Below, piece by piece: positions 1 to 39,252 of a stretch of DNA of 39,252 nucleotides (the first letter of the stretch is position 1; each line of letters begins with the position of its first letter). The notes below the pieces were generated by a model, which saw only the letters and a program-made list of their open reading frames with translations, ran no database searches and was not told where the DNA came from. Source of the stretch: a virus; IMG/VR virus record IMGVR_UViG_3300042750_000005, positions 1 to 39,252 of that record; one strand, given 5' to 3'. The position numbers were made by a program, and so were the translations under genes.

Positions 1-127
1 GCAGTTCGCTGGCGCTGACCACCAGTTCCTTTGTGTCGGTGTATTTTGTCCCGGCTTTTGACGCCACAAACTACCCCAAACTGTCAGGCAATAACCTTGC
101 CGAGGTGAACTATTTTGTCGGCAACAT
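1..127. repeat. Terminal direct repeat, copy 1 (identical to 39126..39252)
   Basis: Bases 1-127 match the last 127 bases of the window base for base. The repeat lies inside an ORF, so it looks like a circular-assembly overlap rather than a non-coding physical terminal repeat. Confidence 0.95.
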
Positions 128-2548: not shown

Positions 2549-2803
2549 ATGGAAGACCGTGTGCGCAGAGGGGCGGAAGCCCGCCAGATACTGGAAAATC
2601 CGATGGTTGTGGCCGCATTCCGGGCGATTGAGGACGAATTAGTGTCAAAGTGGCGGATGTCCGGGGTTATGGAAAACGCGGCGCGCGAGGAATTATACCG
2701 GATGAACGCTGCGATGCGCATGTTCAGGGCAAGATTTGAAGCTGAGATTGTGGGTGCGGAAATGGCCTATGCCCAGGCGAAACAACGAGGGATTGAACCG
2801 TGA
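2549..2803 (+). CDS. Hypothetical helical protein upstream of the scaffold gene
   Basis: 84-aa ORF. The start abuts the previous stop, and the 3' end overlaps the next GTG start. Confidence 0.5.
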   Translation: MEDRVRRGAEARQILENPMVVAAFRAIEDELVSKWRMSGVMENAAREELYRMNAAMRMFRARFEAEIVGAEMAYAQAKQRGIEP

Positions 2804-3729
2804 GCGACGAACCGGGATTTAATGACAGGCTTGAATCGGCTCTGGCGGTGCTTGATGAAAGCCCGGAAGACACCGGCGCTCCACCTGAAACAGAAGACGC
2901 CCCCATCCCGCAGAGCGGGGATGATGCTCCCGAACAGGTAGAGCAGGAAACAGAATTATCCGAAACGGACGACCGGGAAACCGTCATTGATCCGCCGGAT
3001 TCATGGCCCGCAGACGCGCGGGAGAAATTTGCAGCGCTGCCCAGCGACCTTAAACAAGTCATCGCGGAACGGGAAGCAGAGCAAAAGAGCGCGTTCAACA
3101 GGACCATAAATGAAGCCGCCGAAGCAAAGCGCAAGGCGGAATCAACCGGACAGCACCTTGCTGAAACCCTCAATACATATCTCGCCAGAGTTGCGGCCTT
3201 CGACCCAATCCTGAGTGAAGGCATGAATACCGACTGGACCGCGCTTGCCAGGGAAGACCCCATAGCATGGGTTGAGAGAAAGGCGGCGTATGACCAGCGT
3301 ATTCAGGACTACAGTCAGGCGCGTGCGCAGCAAGAACAGCTTGCGCATGCGGAAATTGTACAAAGAAAAGCTGTCGAATCCCAAAAACTGCTTGAGCGCA
3401 TCCCTGAATGGAAGGACCAGAAGGCGTATGACGCTGACCGGCCCCGGATTTTGGAGGCGGGCAAGCATTACGGATTCACGGAAGCTGAACTCTCGAATGT
3501 AATGGATCACCGCGCGGTAGCGATGCTGCGCGATGCGATGCTTTACAGGAAAGGGCAGGCGGACAAGACGGCTTTGGAGGCTAAAAAGGTTGTTCCTTTC
3601 AAGGGGAAAACCCAGGCTCCGGGCAGAACTGTAGACAGGGCAGGCAAGCAGTCCATCATCGATAAAATCTCATCCACCACCAATCTGCATGACCGCGCGG
3701 CTCTGGTGGCGAGCATGATTGGAGACTGA
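2800..3729 (+). CDS. Putative scaffolding protein
   Basis: 309 aa with a very acidic N-terminus, Glu/Lys/Ala-rich helical character, and a position immediately upstream of the major capsid gene. The call is by position and composition only. Confidence 0.5.
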   Translation: MSDEPGFNDRLESALAVLDESPEDTGAPPETEDAPIPQSGDDAPEQVEQETELSETDDRETVIDPPDSWPADAREKFAALPSDLKQVIAEREAEQKSAFNRTINEAAEAKRKAESTGQHLAETLNTYLARVAAFDPILSEGMNTDWTALAREDPIAWVERKAAYDQRIQDYSQARAQQEQLAHAEIVQRKAVESQKLLERIPEWKDQKAYDADRPRILEAGKHYGFTEAELSNVMDHRAVAMLRDAMLYRKGQADKTALEAKKVVPFKGKTQAPGRTVDRAGKQSIIDKISSTTNLHDRAALVASMIGD

Positions 3730-3730
3730 T

Positions 3731-4666
3731 ATGGCTATTTTTACCAATACCTTTCTGACTTTCAGCGCGATTGGCAACCGTGAAGACCTGTCGGATATGA
3801 TCTACAATATTTCCCCCACTGAAACGCCGTTTATGGGCGCGATTGGGAAAACCACGGCGTCGGCGGTTCTGCATGAATGGCAGACGGATGCGCTGGCGGC
3901 GGCGGGGGCGAACGCGCAACTGGAAGGTGATGAAACATCTTTCGGGGCGGTTACCGCTACTTCCCGGCTTGGAAACCGCTGCCAGATCAGCAGCAAGTCT
4001 GTTGTGGTTTCCGGCACTCAGGATGAAGTGAAGAAAGCGGGCCGTACCCGTGAAATGACCTACCAGCTTATGCTGCGGTCGAAAGAGCTTCGCAATGATC
4101 AGGAGTTCACCCTGACCAACAATCAGGCCCCGGTGGTTGGCAACAGCACTACCGCGCGGGCGTTGCGCCCCCTATGTTCATGGTATACCACGAATGATAG
4201 CCGTGGCGCTTCTGGGGCTGACGGCTCCACCACCACGGCGGCGACGGACGGCACCCAACGGGCGCTTACGGAAAGCCTGTGCAAGACTGTCATGCAGAAC
4301 GTATGGACTGCTGGCGGCGATGTTGACATGTGGATGACGGGTGCTTTTAACAAGACGGTGATTTCCGGGTTTTCCGGCAATCATACCCGCACCCAGGACA
4401 CTGTGAACAAGAAGCTGGTGACGGCGCTGGATGTGTACGCTTCCGATTTCGGCACGCACAAGATTGTCGCCAACAGGTTCAGCCGGTCCCGCGACCTTCA
4501 TATGCTGGATACGAGCATGTGGGCTATGGCGGTGCTTCGCCCGACCAAGACCTACGATCTGGCGAAAACCGGCGACGCAACTAAAGCGCTGGTGTTGACG
4601 GAATACACGCTGGAAGCCCGTAATGAGGCGGCTAGCGGCATTGTGGCCGATCTAACCACATCGTAA
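3731..4666 (+). CDS. Major capsid protein, SU10-type (HK97-fold family)
   Basis: The N-terminus MAIFTNTFLTFSAIGNREDLSDMIYNISPTETPFMGAIGKTTASAVLHEWQTDAL matches the SU10 major-capsid family signature. GGAGA sits 5 nt before ATG 3731, so I prefer it to the track start 3719. Confidence 0.85.
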   Translation: MAIFTNTFLTFSAIGNREDLSDMIYNISPTETPFMGAIGKTTASAVLHEWQTDALAAAGANAQLEGDETSFGAVTATSRLGNRCQISSKSVVVSGTQDEVKKAGRTREMTYQLMLRSKELRNDQEFTLTNNQAPVVGNSTTARALRPLCSWYTTNDSRGASGADGSTTTAATDGTQRALTESLCKTVMQNVWTAGGDVDMWMTGAFNKTVISGFSGNHTRTQDTVNKKLVTALDVYASDFGTHKIVANRFSRSRDLHMLDTSMWAMAVLRPTKTYDLAKTGDATKALVLTEYTLEARNEAASGIVADLTTS

Positions 4667-8474: not shown

Positions 8475-10400
8475 ATGGCGACACAGCAGGATATAGCAGG
8501 GCTTTATGGATTGCTGGGCCGCGCGCCGGATCAGGCTGGTCTGGACTGGTGGACACAGCAGGCCAATAACGGCATGTCTATGGATGCTATCCGTCAAAGT
8601 TTCCAGAACGTCGCCAATGCGGGTACGGACCCCCTCAAGCCAGCCGCCCAACCGCAAGGATTGCTAGCTCCCACGCAATCGCCACCGCAGGCGAGCCAGT
8701 TGCCGCCAGCGGGCAACCATCCGTTAAACTCTTTGCAGAACTTCGGCCAAGGGCCGCGCCCGCCTTCTAATGCGCCGGTTACAGGCGGCGGCCCTACTGG
8801 CTTTGGTAACGTCCCGTATCTTCGCAGTGATGGGACTTATGACCCCGGTCAGGAATGGCGCGTTATGGCGGGCGGTCAGGCAAATTCTTCGACTCAGGGA
8901 TTGTTGGCACCGCAAACGCCTCAACCCGCCGCGCAACAGCAAGGACTGCCGTCGCTCCCTGAGCCTGCTTATAAGGGCCAAACCTTGCAACAGATGAAGG
9001 ATTTTATGCAGGGGTTGGCCGCAAAAGGGGTGGATATTTACGCCCCGGATTTCTATAAAAACCCTGAGTGGGATGCGTATATACAGGAGGACACGCGCCA
9101 ATTAAAGCCTGTTCTGGACGCGCAGCAAAAGCAGTATGCCGAGGAAGGCTATGTCGGCCCTGTCGGCTGGGGGAAAACACCTACGGACGTGTTGAGCCAA
9201 CAGATCGCGGCCAACCCGGCTATAGCAGAGGGCTGGCGGCAATATCTTCCGCCCGAAGCAATTGCGGGCAATAAACCGACTATCCCCGCCGCGCCCGGAA
9301 TGGGGGGCAACAACCCGCCACCCGGCCCGTTGCCTTGGCAGGCCCCGCAAGGACTGCTAGCTCCGCAACCTCCTGTTCCGGGTCAATATAATCAGGGCAT
9401 GACAGGTGCGCCTGCCGGGTCATTCCCCCGTCCCGCACCGAATTACTGGAACGGCAACGATTTCGTGATCCCGCATTTCCAGACGCCAGCATCAAGGCCG
9501 ACAAGTCCGTTGCTACCTACCGGAATTTCTGACGGCAACGCCAGCACCACCACGGCGGGCAATGCCCCTCAATCGACAGGGAGCACCGGCGGCATCATTG
9601 CAGGCGCAGCGCTTCCTGCTATTGCTGGACTCACTGGTGATGCGCTTATCAATGGGTTGGCGGCCAATCCCATTTCGGGGCCGGTTATAAGGGCATTAGG
9701 CATAACATCTGGCGCAATGGACGGGCTGGTTATGGGCGCGGACGGGCGGCTAAGCCGCGCACCGTCACCGCCGGGCGCGTTGCCGGGGACAGGTTTCGTG
9801 TCGCCGCAGTCACAGACATTCATGCAGAATTTCAATTCGGCCCTACAGCCAGGGTGGATGAACACGATAGGCGCGGGGCTGGCGGCGGTGCCAGACCTAT
9901 TGCAGGGGGATTACGCGCAGGCGGCTGGCGCTGGCGTTGGCACTTATGTTGGCGCGGCTGCTGGGACCGCTGCGGGCGCGGGGGTTGGCGGCATTCTTGG
10001 AAACTTTATCATCCCCGGCGTGGGTGGCTTCGCGGGCGGCCTGCTGGGCAAGGAGTTAGCCAAGGTTTTCGGCCCGGGTAAATCTGTTGGTCCTAACGCC
10101 GGTGCGAACCTTGCCGTGAACAACGGCATGGCGCAGTTCCAGAGCAGCGGAGCCGATAACAAAGGCAACACACAATATGTAGATCAATTCATCAATGCAG
10201 TAGCTATGGGCGCGAATGAGGCTGCGACGAATAACGGCGTTAAATTGAGCGATGGCGGCTACAGAATCGCGGTTGAGGTAATCGGCGGCAAGCTGAATGT
10301 CGTCGGGGCCGATGGGGTCAAGCGGTCGTTTGAGCCGGATCAGGGCAAGGAAGCATATCAGTACGCGGTGGAATCACTGTTGAAAAGCGGAAAAGCTTGA
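8475..10400 (+). CDS. DUF4214-domain, Pro/Gln-rich, glycine-zipper protein (putative internal virion or ejection protein)
   Basis: The N-terminus DIAGLYGLLGRAPDQAGLDWWTQQANNGMSMDAIRQSF is DUF4214-like. QGLLAP occurs three times. The C-terminal half holds GAGVGTYVGAAAGTAAGAGVGGILGNFIIPGVGGFAGGLLG. Confidence 0.55.
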   Translation: MATQQDIAGLYGLLGRAPDQAGLDWWTQQANNGMSMDAIRQSFQNVANAGTDPLKPAAQPQGLLAPTQSPPQASQLPPAGNHPLNSLQNFGQGPRPPSNAPVTGGGPTGFGNVPYLRSDGTYDPGQEWRVMAGGQANSSTQGLLAPQTPQPAAQQQGLPSLPEPAYKGQTLQQMKDFMQGLAAKGVDIYAPDFYKNPEWDAYIQEDTRQLKPVLDAQQKQYAEEGYVGPVGWGKTPTDVLSQQIAANPAIAEGWRQYLPPEAIAGNKPTIPAAPGMGGNNPPPGPLPWQAPQGLLAPQPPVPGQYNQGMTGAPAGSFPRPAPNYWNGNDFVIPHFQTPASRPTSPLLPTGISDGNASTTTAGNAPQSTGSTGGIIAGAALPAIAGLTGDALINGLAANPISGPVIRALGITSGAMDGLVMGADGRLSRAPSPPGALPGTGFVSPQSQTFMQNFNSALQPGWMNTIGAGLAAVPDLLQGDYAQAAGAGVGTYVGAAAGTAAGAGVGGILGNFIIPGVGGFAGGLLGKELAKVFGPGKSVGPNAGANLAVNNGMAQFQSSGADNKGNTQYVDQFINAVAMGANEAATNNGVKLSDGGYRIAVEVIGGKLNVVGADGVKRSFEPDQGKEAYQYAVESLLKSGKA

Positions 10401-12426: not shown

Positions 12427-14066
12427 TGCCCATTGCCAAGGTCCAGATGCCAGACGGCAGGATAGGCCGCTTTGAAGTGCCGGAAGGTACGACAGAACAG
12501 CAGGTTCTGGATTTTATCCAGTCCTCTGATCCCGCACCGGATGCAGCCAAGCCGCCGCTTGCATGGTCAGATGTTCCAATGAAGGCGATAGGAAATCTCC
12601 CCGGTAGTTTCGGCAACCTTGTTAAAAACACGGTTGCGCCTATCATTTCGCCTGTGGAAACCGGCAAGGCGTTATATTCAGCGGCGTCTGGCGCGGCAAA
12701 GAATATCGCGTCGCCACTATTCCCTGTAAAGCCGGGGGACAAGGATGTTGAAACGGCTAACGCTGTCGGAAAATTCTTCATGGACCGTTACGGCAGTGAA
12801 GAAGGCTGGAAAAAAGCCATAGCGGAAGACCCAGCAGGGGTTCTTGCCGATATATCGACGGTGCTTTCAATGGGCGGCGGTCTTGCGGCGAAATTGCCGG
12901 GGACGGCTGGCGCGGCGGGTGGCGCGGTGAAAACCGCTGGGCAGGCCATGAACCCCATATCGCTTGCATTCAGGGGGGCCGATAAGCTTGCCAGCAAAGT
13001 GGTTGAGCCGGTCGTTTCAAACGCGCTTGGGGTTACTACCGGGGCCGGTGCATCTGCTATCCGTGAGGCGGCTAAAGCGGGGGTAAATGGCGGCGATCAG
13101 CTTGACGCTCTGACTTCCCAGATGCGCGGCACGGCCCCGATAGAGGACGTTGTAAGCGAAGCCAAAACCGCCGTCAATGTGATGAAACAGCAGCGCGGAG
13201 AGGCTTACCGTGCGTCATCAGCATGGAAGGCGGACCCGGCAAAGCTACAGTTTGCGCCGGTTGAAAGGGCGTATGTAAAACTGTTTGAATCCATGTCTAT
13301 CAATGGCGATACCGGGCATATGAAGGTTGGCGCTGACACGACAAGGAAACTGAACGAAATCGGGCAAGTGCTAAACGAATGGAAGGCCGACCCGGCGCTG
13401 CATACAGTTGAGGGGTTCGACGCTCTGAAACAGCGGATTGATGATTTAATGCCGCCACGCACGGACGCCGGGCAATCTGGCCGCGCCGTTACTGCAATGC
13501 GCAACGCTGTTAAAGACACCATTGTCAAGCAGGCTCCGGCTTACGCAAAGACCATGCGGGAATATGAAGTAGCATCTGAATTGATAAAGGATGTTGAGTC
13601 GTCATTGTCCCTTGGCAAAAAAGCCAATGTAGATACCGCGCTGCGCAAACTGCAATCAGTCATGCGGAATAACGCCAATACGAATTACGGGCGCAGGGCG
13701 CAGTTGGGGCAAACGCTTGTTGATGCTGGCGCGGAAACCCTCATGCCCAAAATAGCCGGGCAGATGCTGAGCAGTGCAACGCCGCGAGGATTGCAGGCGC
13801 TTGGGGCGTCCGGGGCGGGCGTTACTGCGCTTATGACAAACCCCTCATATCTGCCGGGTCTGGCATTCGCGTCCCCGCGCATTGTTGGTGAGGGTGCTTT
13901 ATTGGCTGGCAAGGCGGCGCGGCCTGTCAAAGGGCTGCTGGACGCGATTGACCCTGTAATTCCGCCCACAGACGTTGCGGCGCTTCTCTACCAGTCTGGC
14001 AGGTTGAAAGAACAGTCCGAGCCGCTACGGGTTGACGTAAAGAACAGGAGAAAAGGCCGTGAGTGA
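12426..14066 (+). CDS. Putative internal virion or ejection protein
   Basis: TAATG start. 546 aa. The N-terminus KVQMPDGRIGRFEVPEGTTEQQVLDFI is a motif seen in podovirus internal proteins. The rest is Ala/Gly-rich and helical. Confidence 0.45.
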   Translation: MPIAKVQMPDGRIGRFEVPEGTTEQQVLDFIQSSDPAPDAAKPPLAWSDVPMKAIGNLPGSFGNLVKNTVAPIISPVETGKALYSAASGAAKNIASPLFPVKPGDKDVETANAVGKFFMDRYGSEEGWKKAIAEDPAGVLADISTVLSMGGGLAAKLPGTAGAAGGAVKTAGQAMNPISLAFRGADKLASKVVEPVVSNALGVTTGAGASAIREAAKAGVNGGDQLDALTSQMRGTAPIEDVVSEAKTAVNVMKQQRGEAYRASSAWKADPAKLQFAPVERAYVKLFESMSINGDTGHMKVGADTTRKLNEIGQVLNEWKADPALHTVEGFDALKQRIDDLMPPRTDAGQSGRAVTAMRNAVKDTIVKQAPAYAKTMREYEVASELIKDVESSLSLGKKANVDTALRKLQSVMRNNANTNYGRRAQLGQTLVDAGAETLMPKIAGQMLSSATPRGLQALGASGAGVTALMTNPSYLPGLAFASPRIVGEGALLAGKAARPVKGLLDAIDPVIPPTDVAALLYQSGRLKEQSEPLRVDVKNRRKGRE

Positions 14067-14922
14067 AATTTATAGTTGGAGTGAGACGGCGGCGAGCAAT
14101 AACTCCGCCGTGCCGAACGGCTGGCCAGAGGGTCAGTTACCCTCCACGGTGAACGATTGCGCCCGTGAGATGATGGCGGCGCTCAATCGCGACTGGAACC
14201 GCTCTCACGTCACCATATCATCCACCGGCTCGGCCAATGCGTATGTGCTGACCTACTCTAATGCGCCGACACTGACGCATGGGATGATATTCTCGTTCAA
14301 GGCGAACTTCGCGAACACCGGGACGGCGACGGCGAACGTCAATTCTCTGGGCGCGGTATCAATTGTCCTAGTAGACGGCGCATCAGCGCTTACAACCGGA
14401 GATATTCTGGTTAATCAACACGTTGTTCTGAGTTACGATAGCGCGCTCGGAAAAATGGTGATGCTCAGCCCGCGCGGGTCAGCGGCAGGGCCAGTTGGCG
14501 ATCATGCTGTTGTTGTCCATACAGGGAACGGCCACGGCTCCACAAACAACAAAATCCGTCGTTTCACGACAACAATGACAAACACAGGCACGGCAATCAC
14601 GTATGCAGACAGCGCCGCTAACGGTGGGTCTTTTACGATCAACGAAACCGGCTTTTACGCAATTATTTATCGTGATTTCTATAGCGCTGCGAATGCGCAA
14701 TACGGGGTCACAGTAAATTCCGCGCAGCTAACGACGACGATTACTTCGACCGCAGTAGCAAACCGACTGGGCGCTGTGGGAGAGTCAGCGGGCGTAGCTG
14801 CCAATTTTTCCTGCGTTGAAAGATTTACCGCAGGGGATGTTATTCGGGCGCACACGAGCGGCACACCTGATGGTGCCACTGATCTGGTTAAATTCTCAAT
14901 ACGAAAAGTTGGCAACACATAA
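14059..14922 (+). CDS. Tail fibre protein
   Basis: GTG start with AGGAG 8 nt upstream. The N-terminus WSETAASNNSAVPNGWPEGQLPSTVNDCAREMMAALNRDW matches the conserved N-terminal anchor motif of many proteobacterial phage fibre proteins. Confidence 0.6.
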   Translation: MSEIYSWSETAASNNSAVPNGWPEGQLPSTVNDCAREMMAALNRDWNRSHVTISSTGSANAYVLTYSNAPTLTHGMIFSFKANFANTGTATANVNSLGAVSIVLVDGASALTTGDILVNQHVVLSYDSALGKMVMLSPRGSAAGPVGDHAVVVHTGNGHGSTNNKIRRFTTTMTNTGTAITYADSAANGGSFTINETGFYAIIYRDFYSAANAQYGVTVNSAQLTTTITSTAVANRLGAVGESAGVAANFSCVERFTAGDVIRAHTSGTPDGATDLVKFSIRKVGNT

Positions 14923-14957
14923 TGACTCCGGCAGAGAAACAGATCACGAAAACGTGA
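14922..14957 (+). pseudogene. Ghost N-terminus (MTPAEKQITKT-stop) homologous to the start of the 15041 gene
   Basis: atgactccggcagagaaacagatcacgaaaacgtga compared with atgacacctaacgaaaagcagatcacgcaaatc at 15041. Eight of the first nine residues are identical, with four synonymous codon differences. Its ATG overlaps the fibre-gene stop as TAATG. Confidence 0.45.
14944..14957. promoter_or_regulatory. Perfect palindrome TCACG-AAAA-CGTGA (operator-like)
   Basis: Read directly from the sequence. The same half-sites and spacing occur at 33241-33256. It lies in the 119-bp gap upstream of the DUF4214-protease gene. Confidence 0.4.
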
Positions 14958-15040
14958 ACAGGCGTTAACCAAATGACTGGACCGGCTGCAACCATATCCT
15001 ATCTGCCAAGCAATCACGCTGGTGGACAGGGAGCAAGCAA

Positions 15041-16135
15041 ATGACACCTAACGAAAAGCAGATCACGCAAATCTACATAGGATATTTCGACCGTGCGGCT
15101 GACCGTGACGGCTTTAATTTCTGGCTGGCGCAGGCCAATGCTGGCGCGGCCATAGTAGATATTGCCTACTCATTTTCCCTTGGATCAGAATATCTCTCTA
15201 TCTATGGGGGGCTATCGCATGGCGAGCTTGTGGATAAGATTTATGCTCATTTGTTTAATCGTGCGCCTGATCTGGAGGGGCGATCCTATTGGTTGAACGA
15301 ACTGGCGAACGGCAAGCCCACGGCAAGGCTTCTGATCGACATCATATCCGGCGCGCAGGGCAATGATAAGATTATTCTGGAGAACGCCGCCATTGTGGCC
15401 AGGGATTGGACAGATCGCTCGCCAGCGGCCTTTACGATAGCAGACGCACAGAATGCCATAGCCTCTATCAATGAGGTCCAGCCGGTCACGGGAAACGGCC
15501 TGACGGTCAATATAACCGACGCCGCCTTGTTGCCATGGCAGAACGAGATTGGCGCTGCAATGAAGGCCGCATGGGGACAGTGGGAACTGCATTTCGACAA
15601 TGTGTCCCAGATACAAATCGACGTGGACTACCACCCTATTCCGGGCGGAGGCCAGATCGCGTCCGCCGCGCCGGGCATGGAAGTAGTCACGGCATCCGGT
15701 TACACGCAATCCGGCGTGGCGCAGGAAATCATCACCGGCATGGACCCGAACGGCAACATGGCGGATGGTTTTATCAACCTTCATATGACGCCGGACGAAC
15801 TGGCTTCCTACGCCCCGATCACCACGGTCATGGCGCATGAGATAGGCCACCTGATCGCATACCGGACACAGATCAATAACGCCAATGCCGAACACCTCAC
15901 CAACTATGACGGCTTTATCAGCGCGGAGGGCGGAGTGCTTTCATTCAATGGCCCGAACGCAGTCGCAGCTTATGGCGGGCCGGTTCCCATCCATCGCATC
16001 GGCGCGTTTAACAATTACGCCCACGTAGATGACGGAAATCTGTTGATGTATCCGTATGTTAGCTTATACGATTTCAAGATGCCCGGCATCGTTGATTTTG
16101 GGGTAATCGCGGATATGGGAATAACGGTAACATAG
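15041..16135 (+). CDS. DUF4214 domain plus HExxH zinc-metalloprotease-like protein
   Basis: The N-terminus QIYIGYFDRAADRDGFNFWLAQANAG...LFNRAPDLEGRSYWLNELANGK is DUF4214-like. The C-terminal half carries TVMAHEIGHLIAY (HExxH). GGGAG ribosome-binding site. Confidence 0.6.
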   Translation: MTPNEKQITQIYIGYFDRAADRDGFNFWLAQANAGAAIVDIAYSFSLGSEYLSIYGGLSHGELVDKIYAHLFNRAPDLEGRSYWLNELANGKPTARLLIDIISGAQGNDKIILENAAIVARDWTDRSPAAFTIADAQNAIASINEVQPVTGNGLTVNITDAALLPWQNEIGAAMKAAWGQWELHFDNVSQIQIDVDYHPIPGGGQIASAAPGMEVVTASGYTQSGVAQEIITGMDPNGNMADGFINLHMTPDELASYAPITTVMAHEIGHLIAYRTQINNANAEHLTNYDGFISAEGGVLSFNGPNAVAAYGGPVPIHRIGAFNNYAHVDDGNLLMYPYVSLYDFKMPGIVDFGVIADMGITVT

Positions 16136-16145
16136 GAGTGATCAA

Positions 16146-16469
16146 ATGAGATACGCAATCCCCGTTCTGGCCCTGCTGGCCCTGTCAGCATGCAGTACAT
16201 ATCCCGGAAGCCCCCAAAACTACGCTGGCATCAATCACGGGGAATTTCATATTGACCCGAAAACCGGCGCGGTGGATATTACCGTGACTGGCGGCAAGGA
16301 CGGCGAAAACGTGGCATTCACGATAAAGGGGCCGAACGGGCTAGACGCCACATACACAGCCACGAAGGTTGATGCAGCAGCCGCACAGGCCCAGGCATCG
16401 GCTGCAAATGCAGCAATCATGGAGCGTCTGGCCACCAGCGCCGACAAGCTGATTGATAAAATCCCGTGA
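16146..16469 (+). CDS. Lipoprotein
   Basis: MRYAIPVLALLALSAC is a signal peptide with an L-S-A-C lipobox. GGAG lies 8 nt upstream. Confidence 0.7.
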   Translation: MRYAIPVLALLALSACSTYPGSPQNYAGINHGEFHIDPKTGAVDITVTGGKDGENVAFTIKGPNGLDATYTATKVDAAAAQAQASAANAAIMERLATSADKLIDKIP

Positions 16470-16771
16470 GCGAGGGCAATGACAGGGACATGCACCAACT
16501 GCTGGGAGCGCTCAAGCGGGACATGGAAAGCAGCATTTCGCAACGCACCGACCTGTTTGTGCTTGTACGCGACGTGGGGATTCAGGTGGCGACATTGGTT
16601 TCAGAACTGAAAGCGCACATGGACAAGGAGGACAGCCTTGAGGCCAGCCACAGCAAGCTGACTGATCGCGTGACCAAGATAGAGCGCGACCAGAGCAAGA
16701 TTGCCGGGGCGTTCGCGCTGATCGCCGCCAGCATGGGCGGGACGTGGGGCAAGATAACGGGGTGGTTTTGA
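16466..16771 (+). CDS. Coiled-coil protein with a C-terminal membrane anchor (DUF1515-like)
   Basis: GTGA overlap start. The central part is helical (SELKAHMDKEDSLEASHSKLTDRVTKIERDQSK) and is followed by IAGAFALIAASMGGTWGKITGWF. It resembles DUF1515 proteins of alphaproteobacterial prophages, from memory. Confidence 0.4.
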   Translation: MSEGNDRDMHQLLGALKRDMESSISQRTDLFVLVRDVGIQVATLVSELKAHMDKEDSLEASHSKLTDRVTKIERDQSKIAGAFALIAASMGGTWGKITGWF

Positions 16772-17229
16772 TGACTACAATCGCATACCGAGACGGCGTA
16801 TTGGCCGCTGACACGTTGCTAAACGCCATTGCGGGACACGACCGTGTTACCAAGCTAAAGCGACGGGGGAATGCCGTTTACGGTGTAGCTGGCGTTCTTG
16901 TCGATTGCGAAGCCCTTGCTGATTGGTATTTCGGCCCCAGAAACGCCCCGCCTAAATATTTCCTGATCGGCGACGAAAGACCTTCCGCGCAGATTATCGT
17001 CATACACGATGACGGCAAGGTCTATAGCTCCGGATGGGGAGGACACGCCGTTGAGGTCACTAGCTATGTTGCTATAGGCAGTGGATCGGAATATGCGGTC
17101 GGGGCCATGTACATGGGCGCAGACGCGATTCATGCTGTTCAGGCCGCCATGCGCCACGACACTGACACTGGCGGCGAGATAGACTGGGCGGGCGTCGGTC
17201 ACGAAGTGTCACGGTATTCAAATGATTAA
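16771..17229 (+). CDS. Proteasome-beta / HslV-like Ntn-hydrolase family protein
   Basis: The ATG at 16771 overlaps the previous stop. The product starts MTTIAYRDGVLAADT, giving Thr after Met as in HslV TTIV. It also has TKLKRRG (Lys) and AIGSGSEYAVGA, compared with HslV AIGSGGPYA. Confidence 0.6.
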   Translation: MTTIAYRDGVLAADTLLNAIAGHDRVTKLKRRGNAVYGVAGVLVDCEALADWYFGPRNAPPKYFLIGDERPSAQIIVIHDDGKVYSSGWGGHAVEVTSYVAIGSGSEYAVGAMYMGADAIHAVQAAMRHDTDTGGEIDWAGVGHEVSRYSND

Positions 17230-17250
17230 CCAAACAGGAGATAGTAGAGC

Positions 17251-17445
17251 ATGAAATCTTTTCGTAAGCGTCCGGTTGTAATTCAGGCATACCAGCATTT
17301 AGGAGATGCGCTAATAACAATCTCCACCCTTGAGGGTGATATGCATGCGATGCCCGGAGACTGGATCATAACCGGGATTAAAGGTGAAAAGTATCCATGC
17401 AAGCCGGATATTTTCGAGGCCACATATGAGCCTGTAGATGACTAG
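17251..17445 (+). CDS. Small conserved phage protein (PGDWIITG...GEKYPCKPDIFEATYEPV type)
   Basis: ACAGGAG ribosome-binding site. 64 aa. The motif is common in small phage proteins of unknown function. Confidence 0.55.
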   Translation: MKSFRKRPVVIQAYQHLGDALITISTLEGDMHAMPGDWIITGIKGEKYPCKPDIFEATYEPVDD

Positions 17446-17929
17446 CCCCCCCAGAAAAATACCGGACTGCCACGACATGGATGTTCTCGCCAAGACCATA
17501 TACGGAGAGGCCCAAGGCGAAGGCAATCTTGGCCGGGAAGCCGTGGGATGCACGGTCATTAATCGCTGGAGGTCTGGCAAGTGGTTTAACGGCTACGACA
17601 CCAACAATGACGGCATGGAAAGCATCGCGGAAGTCTGCCAGCAGATCGTGCCGAAATCCAAATGGCATCAATATTCTTGTTGGAACGCCGACAATCCAAA
17701 GCTGGCCGAAATCAACGCCTGCAATTTATACAATGCGGTATTCCGGGAATGCGTGACAATCGCCATGCTGGTGATAGCCAATTCGTCCGATCAGCGGTGG
17801 GCGGCACGGGACAAGAGCGGCGGGGCTACTCATTATCATGCGGATTACATCGCGACGCCGGTATGGGCTGCGGGTAAAAAGCCCTGCGCCATCATTGGCA
17901 GACATCGTTTCTTTGCGAATATAGCATGA
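17438..17929 (+). CDS. Endolysin, SleB-type cell wall hydrolase (Hydrolase_2 family)
   Basis: LAKTIYGEAQGEGNLGREAVGCTVINRW is the SleB/CwlJ-type signature. 163 aa with no signal peptide. Confidence 0.8.
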   Translation: MTSPPRKIPDCHDMDVLAKTIYGEAQGEGNLGREAVGCTVINRWRSGKWFNGYDTNNDGMESIAEVCQQIVPKSKWHQYSCWNADNPKLAEINACNLYNAVFRECVTIAMLVIANSSDQRWAARDKSGGATHYHADYIATPVWAAGKKPCAIIGRHRFFANIA

Positions 17930-18186
17930 AAAACGGGAGATACAATTTCCCCCCGGACTACAAGCCCAGCCAGCACATGCTTGATGAAGTTGGCATGGAT
18001 TTTGACGGAGACCTTGGCGGGCTAAAAAAGGACGTTCCGCCCCGGCGCAAACGGCTGAATCCTGCGTGGCTATGGTTGCTTTTTGCGCCGTTTCTGTTAT
18101 TATTCTGGGCAGACCCGGCTTATGCGTTCATGTTGATATTTGGCATGGCGATAGGCGCGGTGGGCATACTGATATTGGATACGTAA
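17926..18186 (+). CDS. Membrane protein with two C-terminal TM segments (holin or antiholin candidate)
   Basis: ATGA overlap with the endolysin gene. The C-terminus reads AWLWLLFAPFLLLFWADPAYAFMLIFGMAIGAVGILIL. Confidence 0.5.
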   Translation: MKNGRYNFPPDYKPSQHMLDEVGMDFDGDLGGLKKDVPPRRKRLNPAWLWLLFAPFLLLFWADPAYAFMLIFGMAIGAVGILILDT

Positions 18187-18199
18187 ACAGGAGATCACC

Positions 18200-18415
18200 A
18201 TGACCAAGCTAATCAGAATCGAAAATGCCGACACCTCAGACTACAAAGTCAGGGTGTCTGTCTTTGACCGTAATACGGCGGAGGATGGCGCGCCAGGCTA
18301 CCTTGCAGAAGTGCACACGCTGGCTCTCCCATGCCAGATGAAGGACATTTACATTCACACAGGCAGATACGTTGTTATTGAAGAGTATAAACACGAACAG
18401 GAGATTCCATCATGA
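18200..18415 (+). CDS. Hypothetical protein
   Basis: ACAGGAG ribosome-binding site 7 nt before the ATG. 71 aa. Confidence 0.5.
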   Translation: MTKLIRIENADTSDYKVRVSVFDRNTAEDGAPGYLAEVHTLALPCQMKDIYIHTGRYVVIEEYKHEQEIPS

Positions 18416-18576
18416 ATGAAATACTCGGATTGATCCGTCATGCGCTGACCACTGGCGGCGGCTACCTTGTCGCCAACGGAATGATAGGATCAAGCGACAT
18501 GGAGACGCTGGTGGGCGGGCTTATGGCCGTTCTGGGCGTGTGCTGGTCGTTGTACGACAAGCGACTGAGCGCGTGA
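18412..18576 (+). CDS. Small holin-like membrane protein (54 aa; below the ORF-track cutoff)
   Basis: ATGA overlap with the previous stop. The product is MNEILGLIRHALTTGGGYLVANGMIGSSDMETLVGGLMAVLGVCWSLYDKRLSA. It resembles small two-helix holins of proteobacterial phages. Confidence 0.5.
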   Translation: MNEILGLIRHALTTGGGYLVANGMIGSSDMETLVGGLMAVLGVCWSLYDKRLSA

Positions 18577-18609
18577 CGATAACGCGCCGCACACCATCGC
18601 TTCCGGTAT

Positions 18610-18651
18610 ATTCAATCAGCACGTCCGGGCGGCATCCGCACTGATTGGAAT
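18610..18651 (+). other. Stem-loop in the convergent intergenic gap
   Basis: ATTCAATCAG ... CTGATTGGAAT forms a 9-10 bp stem with one bulge. A nested GCGG-cat-CCGC sits in the loop. There is no T-tract, so terminator status is uncertain. Confidence 0.3.
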
Positions 18652-18910
18652 CGTAATGCGTCGATACTTCATCGCGCCATGACCGCGCACGATGCACTAG
18701 CCGGATAACTGTGCTGGCTTCATTCGGGCGTATGTCCATCTATCCTTCAATTTGGGCGGCGCTGCAATTTTTCCGTTAACTTTTAAGCGGCCCGGACCTT
18801 GCCTATGCGCACCCCGGTAGTACCAGTTGGGACAGTGTGCGTTAAGGATTGCAGCATTTACGGCACCCGCCCGGATGCCAAGAAAGGAAGTGGCCGCCCC
18901 AATTCAAGAA

Positions 18911-19351
18911 TTATTGATCAATTAGAGCCATTGGCACCCCGGCAAGTGAATATACCTCATACGTTAGTGCATCCCTATCGATCCCTGGCAGCACATTCTG
19001 AATGACATAGTCAACAGATTTTGTGAAGAACGCTGCGAACGTGTCCTGATCCATGGCTGAAAACGATATGGATTTCGGGATAGTATAAAACCCGCCGTCC
19101 GGCAATTCAACAATCTTTGTATGGCCCGTGCCCAGCTTGATCACGTCCAGCAGGTTGTCCACGGAACAATTGTCGATATTGTCAGACACGATTTTCAGCA
19201 GGCTAAAAAATAATCGGTGGAATCGCTGCGACCGTGGCCTTACAACATCCACATCGATAACGTCACCGGGCTTTATCTTGCGCGCCCATGCTTCCGCCTC
19301 GTCTGTTGCCGGGGCCAGCTTGCCGTCATAGGCAATGAATGCCAATTTCAT
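18911..19351 (-). CDS. DUF1367-like phage protein
   Basis: Start MKLAFIAYDGKLAPATDEAEAWARKIKPGDVIDVDVVRPRSQRFHRLFFSLL, which fits the DUF1367 pattern (R-x-x-x-F-H-R-x-F-F). ATGA overlap at 19348-19351 with the upstream gene. Confidence 0.55.
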   Translation of the reverse strand: MKLAFIAYDGKLAPATDEAEAWARKIKPGDVIDVDVVRPRSQRFHRLFFSLLKIVSDNIDNCSVDNLLDVIKLGTGHTKIVELPDGGFYTIPKSISFSAMDQDTFAAFFTKSVDYVIQNVLPGIDRDALTYEVYSLAGVPMALIDQ

Positions 19352-19857
19352 CTGATCGCATATCCCTTGTGGGCCAGAGAGAACGTCAATTCCAGCATTT
19401 CTTTGTCGGGCACGTTGTAGCAAAGCGTCATATCGCCAACGGTCATAACCAGATTGGCGGATCGCGAAGCTGGTGTATTTGGCATAACATTATCGGCCAG
19501 TCTGGCTTTGGTTTTTCTGATAATGTCAGTGTGCGGCGGCAAGTTTTTCGGCAATGTAAATTTAATGATGCGGTTCCCTACATAAAGCGGAAGCCCGCCG
19601 TCTCCAAAAACCAGCGATCCATGCTTGGGGTACCCCTTTACCGTGTCAAACAGAAACCGCCCGCGAAACATACCGAAACGATTAGATGAAGTCGCGCCAC
19701 GGGGATCATGTTTTATCGTCGCGGTCTCCCCGTCAACGCTCATAGCGATACGCACCAAGTCTAAGTCGGGGCCGTGATGGCCGGTAAGCTGAGACGCAAC
19801 AGCACTATCAAAGCTAACATTGACGCCGCTGCTTGTGCTTGAGATTAAAACCTTCAT
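19348..19857 (-). CDS. Hypothetical protein
   Basis: 169 aa starting MKVLISS. ATGA overlaps at both ends. Confidence 0.5.
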   Translation of the reverse strand: MKVLISSTSSGVNVSFDSAVASQLTGHHGPDLDLVRIAMSVDGETATIKHDPRGATSSNRFGMFRGRFLFDTVKGYPKHGSLVFGDGGLPLYVGNRIIKFTLPKNLPPHTDIIRKTKARLADNVMPNTPASRSANLVMTVGDMTLCYNVPDKEMLELTFSLAHKGYAIR

Positions 19858-20171
19858 TGCTGTTTTTCCTTCCATTTCAAGTAACGTACCCTGGCAACCG
19901 TTATAGCCGTTTGCACACCATGCAGAGGCGGAAGACCATAAGTCCGCCCCCAGAAAGCCGCTTCGCCGCCGCCTTGATCTGCGTGGCATTTTGCGCACAG
20001 CGGAAGCGTCCGGTCATCCCCAGGTTTCCGCCCCATGCCGCCACCGTGGCCGTGGCGAATGTGTGCGCCAACCACCGTACCGTCACGCACACCGCAGGCA
20101 CAGCAGCTTGCGTCACGGTATGAGTTGAGGTACTTGCGGTCCCTGATTGGCTTGATTTTCTGCATCACCAA
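19854..20171 (-). CDS. HNH-type nuclease resembling P1 Ref / DUF968 (RecA-dependent nuclease family)
   Basis: CCACG...VVGAHIRHGHGGGMGRKPGDDRTLPLCAKCHADQ gives Cys pairs flanking an H-x-x-H-G...G-M-G-x-K core, as in Ref-like proteins. Confidence 0.55.
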   Translation of the reverse strand: MVMQKIKPIRDRKYLNSYRDASCCACGVRDGTVVGAHIRHGHGGGMGRKPGDDRTLPLCAKCHADQGGGEAAFWGRTYGLPPLHGVQTAITVARVRYLKWKEKQQ

Positions 20172-27873: not shown

Positions 27874-28542
27874 ATTAATTACTACAAACACCACCTTGGT
27901 GATTACGAAACCCGCACCCGCCATTTAAGCCTGGCCGAGCATGGCGCGTACCGCCAGCTTATGGACGCTTACTACGCCACTGAAGAGCCTTTGCCGCTCG
28001 ACATAAACCGCATCTGCAAGATGATCAGGGTCTCAAACAGGACAGAAAAGCGACACGTTCTTGCAATTATCGTGCAGTTTTTTGAACAAAGTCCTGACGG
28101 CTTCCGGCATCACAGAATTGATCGTGAAATCGCAGTCTATCGCGAAAAAGCCTTAATAAACAAGGGCAATGCCAAGCGAACCGCTAAGCGAAACGAGAGC
28201 CAACCGCTAAGCGAAACGGCAACCAAGCCAGTAACCACTAACCAAGAACCAATAACCAATATACATATTATAGGCCCGACTAGCGTCGGCGAAAGCCCCC
28301 GCTTGAAAAGGAAAAGCAGGCTGGCCCCGGAATGGGAGATTGAGGAAGATGACCCAAACCACCTGTACTGCAAGGCCAAGGGCATGACGTGGGCGGAAAT
28401 GGAAGTCGAAGAGGAAAAATTCAAAAACCATCACACAGCGAAGGGTAACGTCATGCTGGACTGGAACGCAGCATGGCGGACCTGGGTTAACAACTGGCTG
28501 ACATACAGGAGGGGGGATTATGGCAAGGCGCAAGGACGGTGA
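27874..28542 (+). CDS. DUF1376 (YdaU-like) replication-associated protein; apparent ATT start
   Basis: The domain signature INYYKHHLGDYETRTRHLSLAEHGAYRQLMDAYYATEEPLP begins 29 codons upstream of the first in-frame ATG (27961). No ATG, GTG or TTG lies between the upstream stop and 27961. AGGAGG (27863-27868) sits 5 nt before ATT 27874. Confidence 0.6.
   Translation: MNYYKHHLGDYETRTRHLSLAEHGAYRQLMDAYYATEEPLPLDINRICKMIRVSNRTEKRHVLAIIVQFFEQSPDGFRHHRIDREIAVYREKALINKGNAKRTAKRNESQPLSETATKPVTTNQEPITNIHIIGPTSVGESPRLKRKSRLAPEWEIEEDDPNHLYCKAKGMTWAEMEVEEEKFKNHHTAKGNVMLDWNAAWRTWVNNWLTYRRGDYGKAQGR
28174..28274. repeat. Iteron-like direct repeats plus an AT-rich tract inside the DUF1376 gene (candidate replication origin)
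   Basis: The 17-mer AACCGCTAAGCGAAACG occurs at 28179-28195 and 28202-28218, a 23-bp period. AAGCGAA occurs three times and AACCA five times (28221-28258). AATAACCAATATACATATTATAGG follows. Confidence 0.45.
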
Positions 28543-38953: not shown

Positions 38954-39252
38954 ATGGGCGATATTACATACGGCACACGCCCCGGCGCGGTGGCGCTGTT
39001 AACGACCGAGCTTAACAGTCTGGCCACTGCGACGTTTACGGCGTTCGGGCCGGTAATCACTCCGGGCAGCACCACCAACCTGACTATTCGGGCCTTGCGC
39101 GGGGACCTGCTTTTCAAGCTGGCCAGCAGTTCGCTGGCGCTGACCACCAGTTCCTTTGTGTCGGTGTATTTTGTCCCGGCTTTTGACGCCACAAACTACC
39201 CCAAACTGTCAGGCAATAACCTTGCCGAGGTGAACTATTTTGTCGGCAACAT
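38954..39252 (+). CDS. 5' part of the wrap-around CDS (continues as 128..296 after removing the 127-bp overlap)
   Basis: The ATG directly follows the previous TAA. The ORF is open to the window end and in frame with 33..296 through the repeat. Confidence 0.7.
   Translation, partial: MGDITYGTRPGAVALLTTELNSLATATFTAFGPVITPGSTTNLTIRALRGDLLFKLASSSLALTTSSFVSVYFVPAFDATNYPKLSGNNLAEVNYFVGN
39126..39252. repeat. Terminal direct repeat, copy 2 (identical to 1..127)
   Basis: Direct comparison of the two window ends. Confidence 0.95.

Follow-up and report, generated by a model that had tools for sequence, protein, structure and literature searches.

What does a phage do with a hydrolase of the proteasome type if it encodes no ATPase to work with it? 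This question is raised by a gene at positions 16771-17229 (+ strand) of IMG/VR virus record IMGVR_UViG_3300042750_000005, the whole of which (39,252 nucleotides) is referred to here as the window. An initial annotation, made from the letters of the sequence, described the gene product as a proteasome-beta/HslV-like N-terminal nucleophile (Ntn) hydrolase without an ATPase partner. The product is indeed an Ntn hydrolase of the proteasome-beta/HslV superfamily, as is borne out by profile comparisons, the predicted fold and residue conservation, and the gene is a new, moderately diverged member of PPH, a phage family that has already been named and is widely annotated. It is likely that this PPH-family protein is a Thr1 peptidase that acts independently of an ATPase, and that probably forms rings.

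The PPH family was named in 2021 by Fuchs et al., when it comprised 219 nr70 sequences (PMC8665760). PPHs were described as proteins of about 140 residues, encoded in Caudovirales and, amid phage genes, in their hosts, and were placed in group I, branching out from the BPH cluster. They were reported to have no propeptide, no S12/H5, no co-occurrence with AAA+ proteins, no functional clue and, unlike almost all other homologues, no helix H2, a helix which is otherwise absent only in RPC and connectase (PMC8665760). Phages carrying HslV-like genes without HslU had also been remarked on in print (PMC7823757), and many records of cultured phages already annotate the gene as “HslV family peptidase”. 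Thus, the novelty implied by the initial annotation was overstated. Its statement that the function of stand-alone phage proteasome homologues is uncharacterised agrees with our literature searches, in which no functional study of PPH was found.

Superfamily and fold

The open reading frame (ORF) with a Met-Thr-Thr-Ile-Ala start is present as annotated, and encodes 152 amino acids, beginning MTTIAYRDGVLAADT, followed by a stop codon.

16771-17229, + strand: gene for the PPH-family proteasome homologue (ORF, PHROG 1040 match, AlphaFold2 model, Foldseek matches to BPH and 20S beta)

The protein matches PHROG 1040, “peptidase HslV family”, over residues 1-138 (E=1.1e-35). As a single sequence it scores 20.7 bits with the Pfam Proteasome model (PF00227), which is under the gathering threshold of 22.4 bits; some of its relatives carry a precomputed PF00227 match. 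In a single-sequence search of the PDB, BPH was the sole match. A family profile built from 55 sequences matched BPH in the PDB with E-values of 1.9e-12 and 1e-10, followed by beta5 and beta5i (about 1e-8) and HslV (about 1e-7). Thus, membership of the superfamily is secure, because the family profile reaches beta5 at 1e-8, but membership of the PF00227 model is marginal. The equivalog models for HslV and 20S subunits gave 12-17 bits against cut-offs of 137-224. Comparison with E. coli HslV by hhalign gave a probability of 96% (E=3e-9) in a gapped alignment restricted to residues 1-114, with about 25% identity over 114 columns.

The AlphaFold2 (AF2) model of the protein, for which the alignment of the same 55 sequences was used, has a mean predicted local distance difference test score (pLDDT) of 95.9 and a predicted template modelling score (pTM) of 0.89. 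The top Foldseek matches in the PDB were BPH and 20S beta5 (probability 1.00, TMq 0.66-0.73), and the top match in BFVD was a 146-amino acid “proteasome subunit beta” of Caulobacter phage CcrBL9 (TM 0.75-0.77). These profile and fold matches to HslV, BPH and 20S beta are much stronger than would be expected by chance.

The model has the beta-sandwich fold of the proteasome and contains three helices in total: residues 43-54, 106-114 and 119-129. A loop (residues 55-72) follows the first helix and leads into a strand (residues 73-79). At the C-terminus there are strands at 137-141 and 147-149 and then a short tail of low confidence, without S12/H5; the region of homology finishes near residue 138-144. 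The loop is found at the position occupied by helix H2 in other members of the superfamily.

16933-16986, + strand: Pro-containing loop, residues 55-72, where HslV, BPH and 20S beta have H2 (AF2 model and family alignment)

The loop reads GPRNAPPKYFLIGDERPS and is not acidic. It has about six extra residues in the clade to which the window protein belongs, and alignment columns 65-66 are gapped in 75-88% of the family.

The N-terminus and the catalytic residues

An alternative GTG start upstream, at 16744, is mechanically possible. However, a direct [M/L/V]-T start was found in 188 of 190 relatives and in 134 of 136 independently retrieved relatives, and the start is therefore placed at 16771, where a purine run (GGGGTGG) lies about 8 nt 5′ of the ATG. 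A homologue with 75% identity (P0002) was called with an N-terminal extension and has Leu at the position of Met1 in the window protein (…VQLTTIAY), which suggests a TTG initiator in that gene and favours 16771 as the start codon position in the window. There is no propeptide: the alignment begins at residue 1 in 148 of the 150 best matches obtained with HMMER. An antisense ORF of 115 amino acids (16855-17202, - strand) lies wholly within the PPH gene, and its GC content at third codon positions (GC3) exceeds that at first and second positions. A simple GC3-based gene caller chose this ORF over 16771-17229; it was rejected as a shadow ORF.

Methionine aminopeptidase has specificity for small second residues, and Met-Thr is a substrate. 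The enzyme of the host would be expected to remove Met1 and thereby expose the threonine as Thr1. E. coli HslV begins with Met/Val-Thr-Thr, like the window protein, and when BPH was expressed in E. coli, Met1 was lost and Thr1 exposed, as demonstrated by mass spectrometry (PMC5777263). The residues that would surround the exposed threonine in the active site are as follows.

16774-16776, + strand: Thr2 codon, N-terminal nucleophile (Thr1 after removal of Met), aligned with Thr1 of HslV and beta5
16810-16812, + strand: Asp14 codon, equivalent of Asp17, aligned with D17 of HslV
16852-16854, + strand: Lys28 codon, equivalent of Lys33, aligned with K33 of HslV, beta5 and BPH
16891-16893, + strand: Gly41 codon, equivalent of the oxyanion-hole Gly47, aligned by hidden Markov model (HMM) with Gly47 of beta5i
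17077-17085, + strand: Gly103-Ser104-Gly105, GSG motif (Ser129 equivalent), aligned with AIGSGG of HslV
17158-17169, + strand: Asp130 to Thr133, D-x-x-T/S-G-G motif (Asp166 and Ser169 equivalents), aligned with RDSYSGG of beta5i

Several of these residues had been picked out in the initial annotation, and correctly so: the Asp in the AAD context is Asp14; the Lys in TKLKRRG is the first of the two lysines, Lys28; and the segment AIGSGSEYA aligns directly with AIGSGGPYA of E. coli HslV. Among 190 unique relatives, T2, D14 and K28 are each conserved in 100% and G41 in 99%, G103-S104-G105 in 100/97/100%, D130 in 96% and T/S133 in 99%. These first sets of relatives were retrieved by routes that favour shared N-terminal words, and conservation was therefore recounted on an independent set, for which 136 further representatives were taken from an exhaustive HMMER scan (1.84 billion proteins) that is free of word-index bias. 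In this set the values are 100% for T2, 99% for D14 and K28, 100% for G41, 100/99/100% for G-S/T-G, 93% for D130 and 94% for T/S133. Thus, the Thr/Asp/Lys arrangement is clearly retained among more than 300 relatives (99-100% for each residue), and conservation across the whole network is 93-100%.

The N-terminal 15 residues of the family are nearly invariant. Away from the active site, conservation is densest in H3/H4 (A109, A112, M113, G116, A117, A119, A122, V123 and A126). The near-perfect conservation of the catalytic network, as read from sequence comparison, implies that the presumed enzymatic role in infection has been under strong selection.

Comparison with PPH and other proteasome homologues

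The window protein is a member of PPH, an assignment made from the published features of that family and not by comparison with the type sequence, WP_042125023.1 (KEGG OC.1434257). Like PPHs, it is compact (152 amino acids, compared with about 140), has no H2 in the AF2 model, has equivalents of Thr1, Asp17, Lys33 and Gly47, and has no propeptide; it also has neither C-terminal S12/H5 nor an extra C-terminal domain, which it shares with PPH but not with RPC. It is nearest to BPH (sole PDB match of the single sequence, best profile match and top Foldseek match), and it is encoded by a tailed-phage genome, with relatives in phage records, in IMG/VR loci and in alphaproteobacterial genomes. It differs from typical PPHs in two respects that mark its subclade: the loop in place of H2 is about six residues longer, and there is a 12-residue C-terminal tail. 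The subclade (P0002-P0008) has 50-75% identity within itself and at most 48% to the rest of the family. Much longer C-terminal extensions, of 70-125 residues, are found in three high-scoring proteins with a PPH core: P0144 (267 amino acids), P0239 (252) and P0176 (214).

The other recently described homologues fit less well. AAH and CPH are excluded, since the window protein has no H2, and RPC is excluded, since the window protein has no C-terminal domain. In connectase, H1 and H2 are both absent and an insertion of two helices between S3 and S4 lies over the active site, whereas the window protein has H1 (residues 43-54) and no insertion among the strands of residues 3-41.

BPH and the window protein have in common that there is no propeptide, that removal of Met exposes Thr1 and that there is no partner unfoldase. 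BPH is described as a 14-mer barrel that works with no unfoldase, binds epoxomicin at Thr1 and yet shows no peptidase activity in standard assays (PMC5777263). In contrast to the window protein, BPH (PDB 5ovs, 5ovt and 5ovu) has about 200 amino acids, retains H2, has a long acidic pore loop and is encoded by a chromosomal bacterial gene; the TM-score normalised to BPH is only 0.55.

HslV is a dodecameric double hexamer. The likeness to HslV that was originally proposed holds at the level of the superfamily: both proteins have the Ntn fold, an MTTI... start and no propeptide, and D17, K33 and GSG are aligned. It does not hold at the level of orthology. The scores of 13.0 bits (TIGR03692) and 12.2 bits (NF003964) compare with cut-offs of 157.75 and 137; HslV has about 175 amino acids and the full set of H1-H4, whereas the window protein has no H2, has an S1-S2 hairpin that is shorter by about four residues, and is closer to BPH; and there is no hslU in the complete genome or beside 47 relatives. 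Thus, the window protein is not HslV, because the equivalog score, the partnership with HslU and the complement of helices all fail. With 20S beta5/beta5i there is a full-length HMM alignment that includes D166-x-x-S169-G-G, and TMq is 0.67-0.73; unlike 20S beta, the window protein has no propeptide, no H2 and no H5, and there are no alpha subunits.

A phage protein with an HslV-like assignment has been observed in cells: gp116 of Erwinia phage RAY, a nucleus-forming jumbo phage, which is an accessory protein assigned to the “HslVU protease family” and co-localises with the DNA of the phage inside the phage nucleus (bioRxiv 10.1101/2023.02.24.529968). Homologues from RAY-like Erwinia jumbo phages were only distant matches in fold searches (12-15% identity, 171-194 amino acids). 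RAY gp116 probably belongs with these distant homologues and not with PPH.

A complete genome without an ATPase partner

The first and last 127 bp of the window (1-127 and 39126-39252) are an exact direct repeat. Thus, the window represents the complete genome of a phage (about 39.1 kb, 54.7% GC; circularly assembled or terminally redundant), and the absence of an ATPase partner can be asserted. Across all reading frames there are only three Walker-A motifs: in the large terminase, in a 641-amino acid ORF of the structural module and in a small ORF. PHROG and Pfam scans of every ORF of at least 250 amino acids, and of many smaller ones, found no AAA+ domain; the functions found were head, tail, ejection, lysis, recombination, single-stranded DNA-binding protein, methylase, HNH, DUF5131, DUF1064 and DUF1376. 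Together with a tblastn search, these results confirm that no ATPase of the HslU or Clp type is encoded in the genome.

The 641-amino acid ORF (8475-10400, + strand) carries its Walker-A-like GPVGWGKT at nt 9156 and otherwise has only a weak DUF4214-like N-terminus; the motif is probably coincidental. The tblastn search with E. coli HslU matched 28123-28326 (E=0.002). This match, to the linker of a DUF1376 protein with GPTSVGES in place of the Walker-A GK[ST] and hence without the Walker lysine, was taken to be a chance one. The DUF1376 protein belongs to the replication module (27961-28542, + strand, 193 amino acids), and its linker resembles the N-terminus and Walker-A region of HslU with 37% identity over 73 amino acids (IIGPTSVGES).

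The window encodes a portal, a terminase, a capsid protein and an endolysin, and its phage is uncultured and podovirus-like. The portal shares only about 35% identity with the portals of podophages of Pelagibacter, Methylophilales and Pseudomonas. A megablast search of 14000-20000 against the phage collection gave no match, so there is no close cultured relative of the window phage. Copies of the PPH-family gene in bacterial genomes (31-39% identity) are almost all from Alphaproteobacteria, which weakly suggests an alphaproteobacterial host for the window phage.

Family distribution and neighbourhoods

The family is large. There were 600 word-index matches, 477 IMG/VR loci and 260 cultured-phage records, and, with a limit of E<=1e-30, at least 1,092 clusters at 50% identity were represented in the HMMER scan. 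The cultured-phage records include 166 from Salmonella (many of about 42 kb, including Jerseyviruses such as f18SE) and 29 from Caulobacter; the remaining carriers are phages of Pseudomonas, Rhizobium, Vibrio, Erwinia and others. The median length in the family is 146.5 amino acids (range 136-185).

In the window, the genes from head to lysis form one long co-directional block, within which the PPH gene comes at the end of the structural operon, just before the lysis genes. Its immediate surroundings are as follows.

16466-16771, + strand: upstream ORF of 101 amino acids, coiled-coil-like, with a Gly/Ala-rich hydrophobic C-terminus, putatively coupled in translation to the PPH gene and not conserved with PPH elsewhere
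16769-16773, + strand: TGATG overlap, in which the stop codon of the upstream ORF (16769-16771) shares one base with the start codon of PPH (16771-16773), as read off the sequence itself
17438-17929, + strand: endolysin (Hydrolase_2/SleB-like), two genes downstream (phrog_938 endolysin, E=1.2e-8; Pfam Hydrolase_2)

The TGATG overlap suggests translational coupling inside a late operon. In the closest relative on a long contig (L002, 59% identity), the upstream ORF likewise overlaps the PPH-family gene, and the position after a DUF4214 protein of the tail module is conserved, but the small genes that flank PPH in L002 have no homology to those that flank it in the window. The upstream ORF was originally described as tail-anchored, which is weakly supported: its C-terminus is Gly/Ala-rich and moderately hydrophobic, but there is no strong transmembrane segment on the Kyte-Doolittle scale. 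The gene's position before the lysis genes, which was offered as a sign of a region of cargo and host-takeover genes, holds for the window; adjacency to lysis genes is not a trait of the family.

This became clear from an analysis of neighbours at 85 loci, dereplicated to 47. After the GC3-based gene caller had been misled by the shadow ORF, homology clustering and same-strand ORFs were used for this analysis. Clustering by BLAST of all ORFs within 2.5 kb at the 47 loci revealed no conserved partner gene (the largest cluster was found at 7 of the 47), and there was no AAA+ unfoldase among the neighbours scanned with Pfam. The two nearest same-strand ORFs on each side are of many kinds (terminase, portal, capsid, DUF5906 primase, DnaT-like and kinase genes, with occasional muralytic domains), and in large Caulobacter and Rhizobium phages the PPH-family gene is found among hypothetical genes. 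The window, f18SE and another locus (L004) had suggested a link to lysis as a family trait, and these bulk Pfam scans ruled it out.

Possible functions

How might such a protein work on its own? By analogy with proteasomes, the hydroxyl group of Thr1 would be the nucleophile and its amino group the general base; Lys28 and Asp14 would tune Thr1, the amide of Gly41 would provide the oxyanion hole, and Ser104, Asp130 and Thr133 would brace the site. The subunits would probably assemble into stacked rings via H3/H4, which are retained and highly conserved, as in BPH and HslV; in proteasomes, H3/H4 mediate the contacts between rings (PMC8665760). Late in infection, the enzyme would then be active in the cytoplasm of the host, independently of ATP, and its substrates would be peptides, unstructured or unfolded proteins or a narrow set of targets.

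This account of an ATPase-independent Thr1 peptidase starts from what is observed (the fold, the intact catalytic network, the missing propeptide, the stand-alone status and the late-type position in the operon), and we consider it likely, despite several points that weigh against it. The word “protease” is applied to PPH from conserved chemistry alone and is best read as a prediction. BPH and Anbu, the closest relatives with solved structures, show no proteolysis in vitro despite intact active sites (PMC5777263), and Fuchs et al. caution that some of the new homologues may form no rings (PMC8665760). The loss of H2 could alter assembly, late expression is deduced from gene order alone, and the placement within PPH comes from the published features of the family.

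A role as prohead protease was rejected, as the gene is outside the head module (scaffold and capsid genes, 2800-4666). Could the missing ATPase be supplied by the host? The phage protein would then dock on host HslU, or on another AAA+ unfoldase, to form a hybrid ATP-dependent protease that redirects host proteolysis. This would suit a protein that shares its superfamily with HslV and a phage that has no unfoldase gene of its own, and the cultured hosts of PPH phages (Salmonella, Caulobacter, Pseudomonas, Rhizobium and Vibrio) are nearly all Proteobacteria, a phylum in which HslV is recorded (PMC8665760, Table 1). Yet H2, which is half of the apical H1/H2 face, is absent from the window protein. 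It is to this face that HslU binds in HslV, and the alpha ring in 20S; the loss of H2 removes part of it, which argues against hijacking of host HslU. The nearest relative, BPH, also works with no partner unfoldase, and its divergence has been proposed to serve precisely the avoidance of HslU (PMC5777263), co-occurrence with AAA+ proteins has been found for none of the new homologues (PMC8665760), and the evidence for HslV itself is thin (only 12-13 bits with the equivalog models, and an hhalign alignment restricted to residues 1-114). We regard hijacking of a host unfoldase as decidedly unlikely. The common superfamily might also allow the phage protein to co-assemble with host HslV, or to cap it, and so inhibit HslUV as a dominant-negative poison; that phages can inhibit proteases of the host is known in principle. 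Such poisoning is scarcely credible, because the full catalytic network is strictly conserved across more than 1,000 diverged clusters, which points to selection for catalysis and not for binding alone, and because mixed rings are unlikely given an identity of about 25% to HslV and the absence of H2.

Perhaps, instead, the protein forms no ring at all and is a monomeric, site-specific processing enzyme or ligase that cleaves or ligates one specific phage or host protein. Connectase, which has neither H1 nor H2, shows that homologues can be monomeric and highly specific ligases (PMC8665760), and PPH has lost H2; BPH has no general peptidase activity (PMC5777263); and a near-invariant stretch of 15 N-terminal residues is compatible with a fixed, specific substrate. 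However, the insertion between S3 and S4 that is the signature of connectase (PMC8665760) is replaced in the AF2 model by short hairpins only, H1, H3 and H4 are retained, with very high conservation of H3/H4, and no conserved neighbour presents itself as a dedicated substrate, since the largest cluster of neighbours covers 7 of 47 loci. A connectase-like role is accordingly judged unlikely. The neighbours might also point to lysis, in that the protease would act on a holin, an antiholin, a spanin or the upstream coupled ORF and so set the timing of lysis in the window phage. In the window, PPH is found between small ORFs of membrane- or lipoprotein-like character and the endolysin; in the Jerseyvirus f18SE (L001, 3943-5496) it immediately precedes holin-holin-endolysin; in L004 (5562-6432, a metagenomic phage) it directly follows a Phage_lysozyme gene; and the ORFs on either side of it in L002 are small and hydrophobic. 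Against this, when the two closest same-strand neighbours on either side are considered at the 47 loci, muralytic domains occurred only about three times, no more often than terminase, portal, capsid, DUF5906 and DnaT-like genes, and by a rough estimate for a genome of about 55 genes, some 3 of 47 loci would be this near an endolysin by chance. The copies in large phages are among unrelated hypothetical genes, the flanking genes of the window and L002 are non-homologous, and a PPH, which has no signal peptide, requires its N-terminus to be free in the cytoplasm. The linkage to lysis is local, recurring in a few lineages without being general to the family, and a lysis-timing protease is very improbable.

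Among enzyme families of the proteasome type, PPH is the only one that is primarily viral, and with at least 1,092 clusters at 50% identity, compared with the 219 nr70 sequences of 2021, it is far larger than first reported. The window gene adds one diverged example, and the many cultured phages that carry PPH (such as Salmonella Jerseyviruses or Caulobacter phiCbK-like phages) offer a tractable route to its function. A bolder and rather doubtful proposal is that PPH is a late-expressed, ATP-independent mini-proteasome that would destroy particular host proteins (e.g. factors of defence or stress response), or would borrow a host unfoldase; in a narrower variant, it would be tied to the adjacent lysis cassette in the clade of the window and in the Jerseyviruses. 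If the mini-proteasome proposal were true, this would be the first demonstrated viral protease of the proteasome type in host takeover or counter-defence.

Other genes near the locus

Between the PPH gene and the endolysin there is an ORF of 64 amino acids (17251-17445, + strand) that matches phrog_419 (E=7e-25), with a weak match to Pfam PGDYG; its product is one of the small proteins that are widespread among phages. An ORF of 107 amino acids that lies just upstream of the PPH/lysis region (16146-16469, + strand) has a clear lipoprotein signal and lipobox (MRYAIPVLALLALSAC) and no match in PHROG or Pfam. Its product could be an o-spanin-like lipoprotein or one of superinfection exclusion. 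At the end of the tail module, a protein of 364 amino acids (15041-16135, + strand) combines a DUF4214 domain in its N-terminal part (E=1e-12) with an HExxH motif in its C-terminal part (VMAHEIGHLIAY). This protein may be a virion-associated zinc metallopeptidase; the HExxH is kept in its 50%-identical homologue in L002 (FRHEFGHMLAF).

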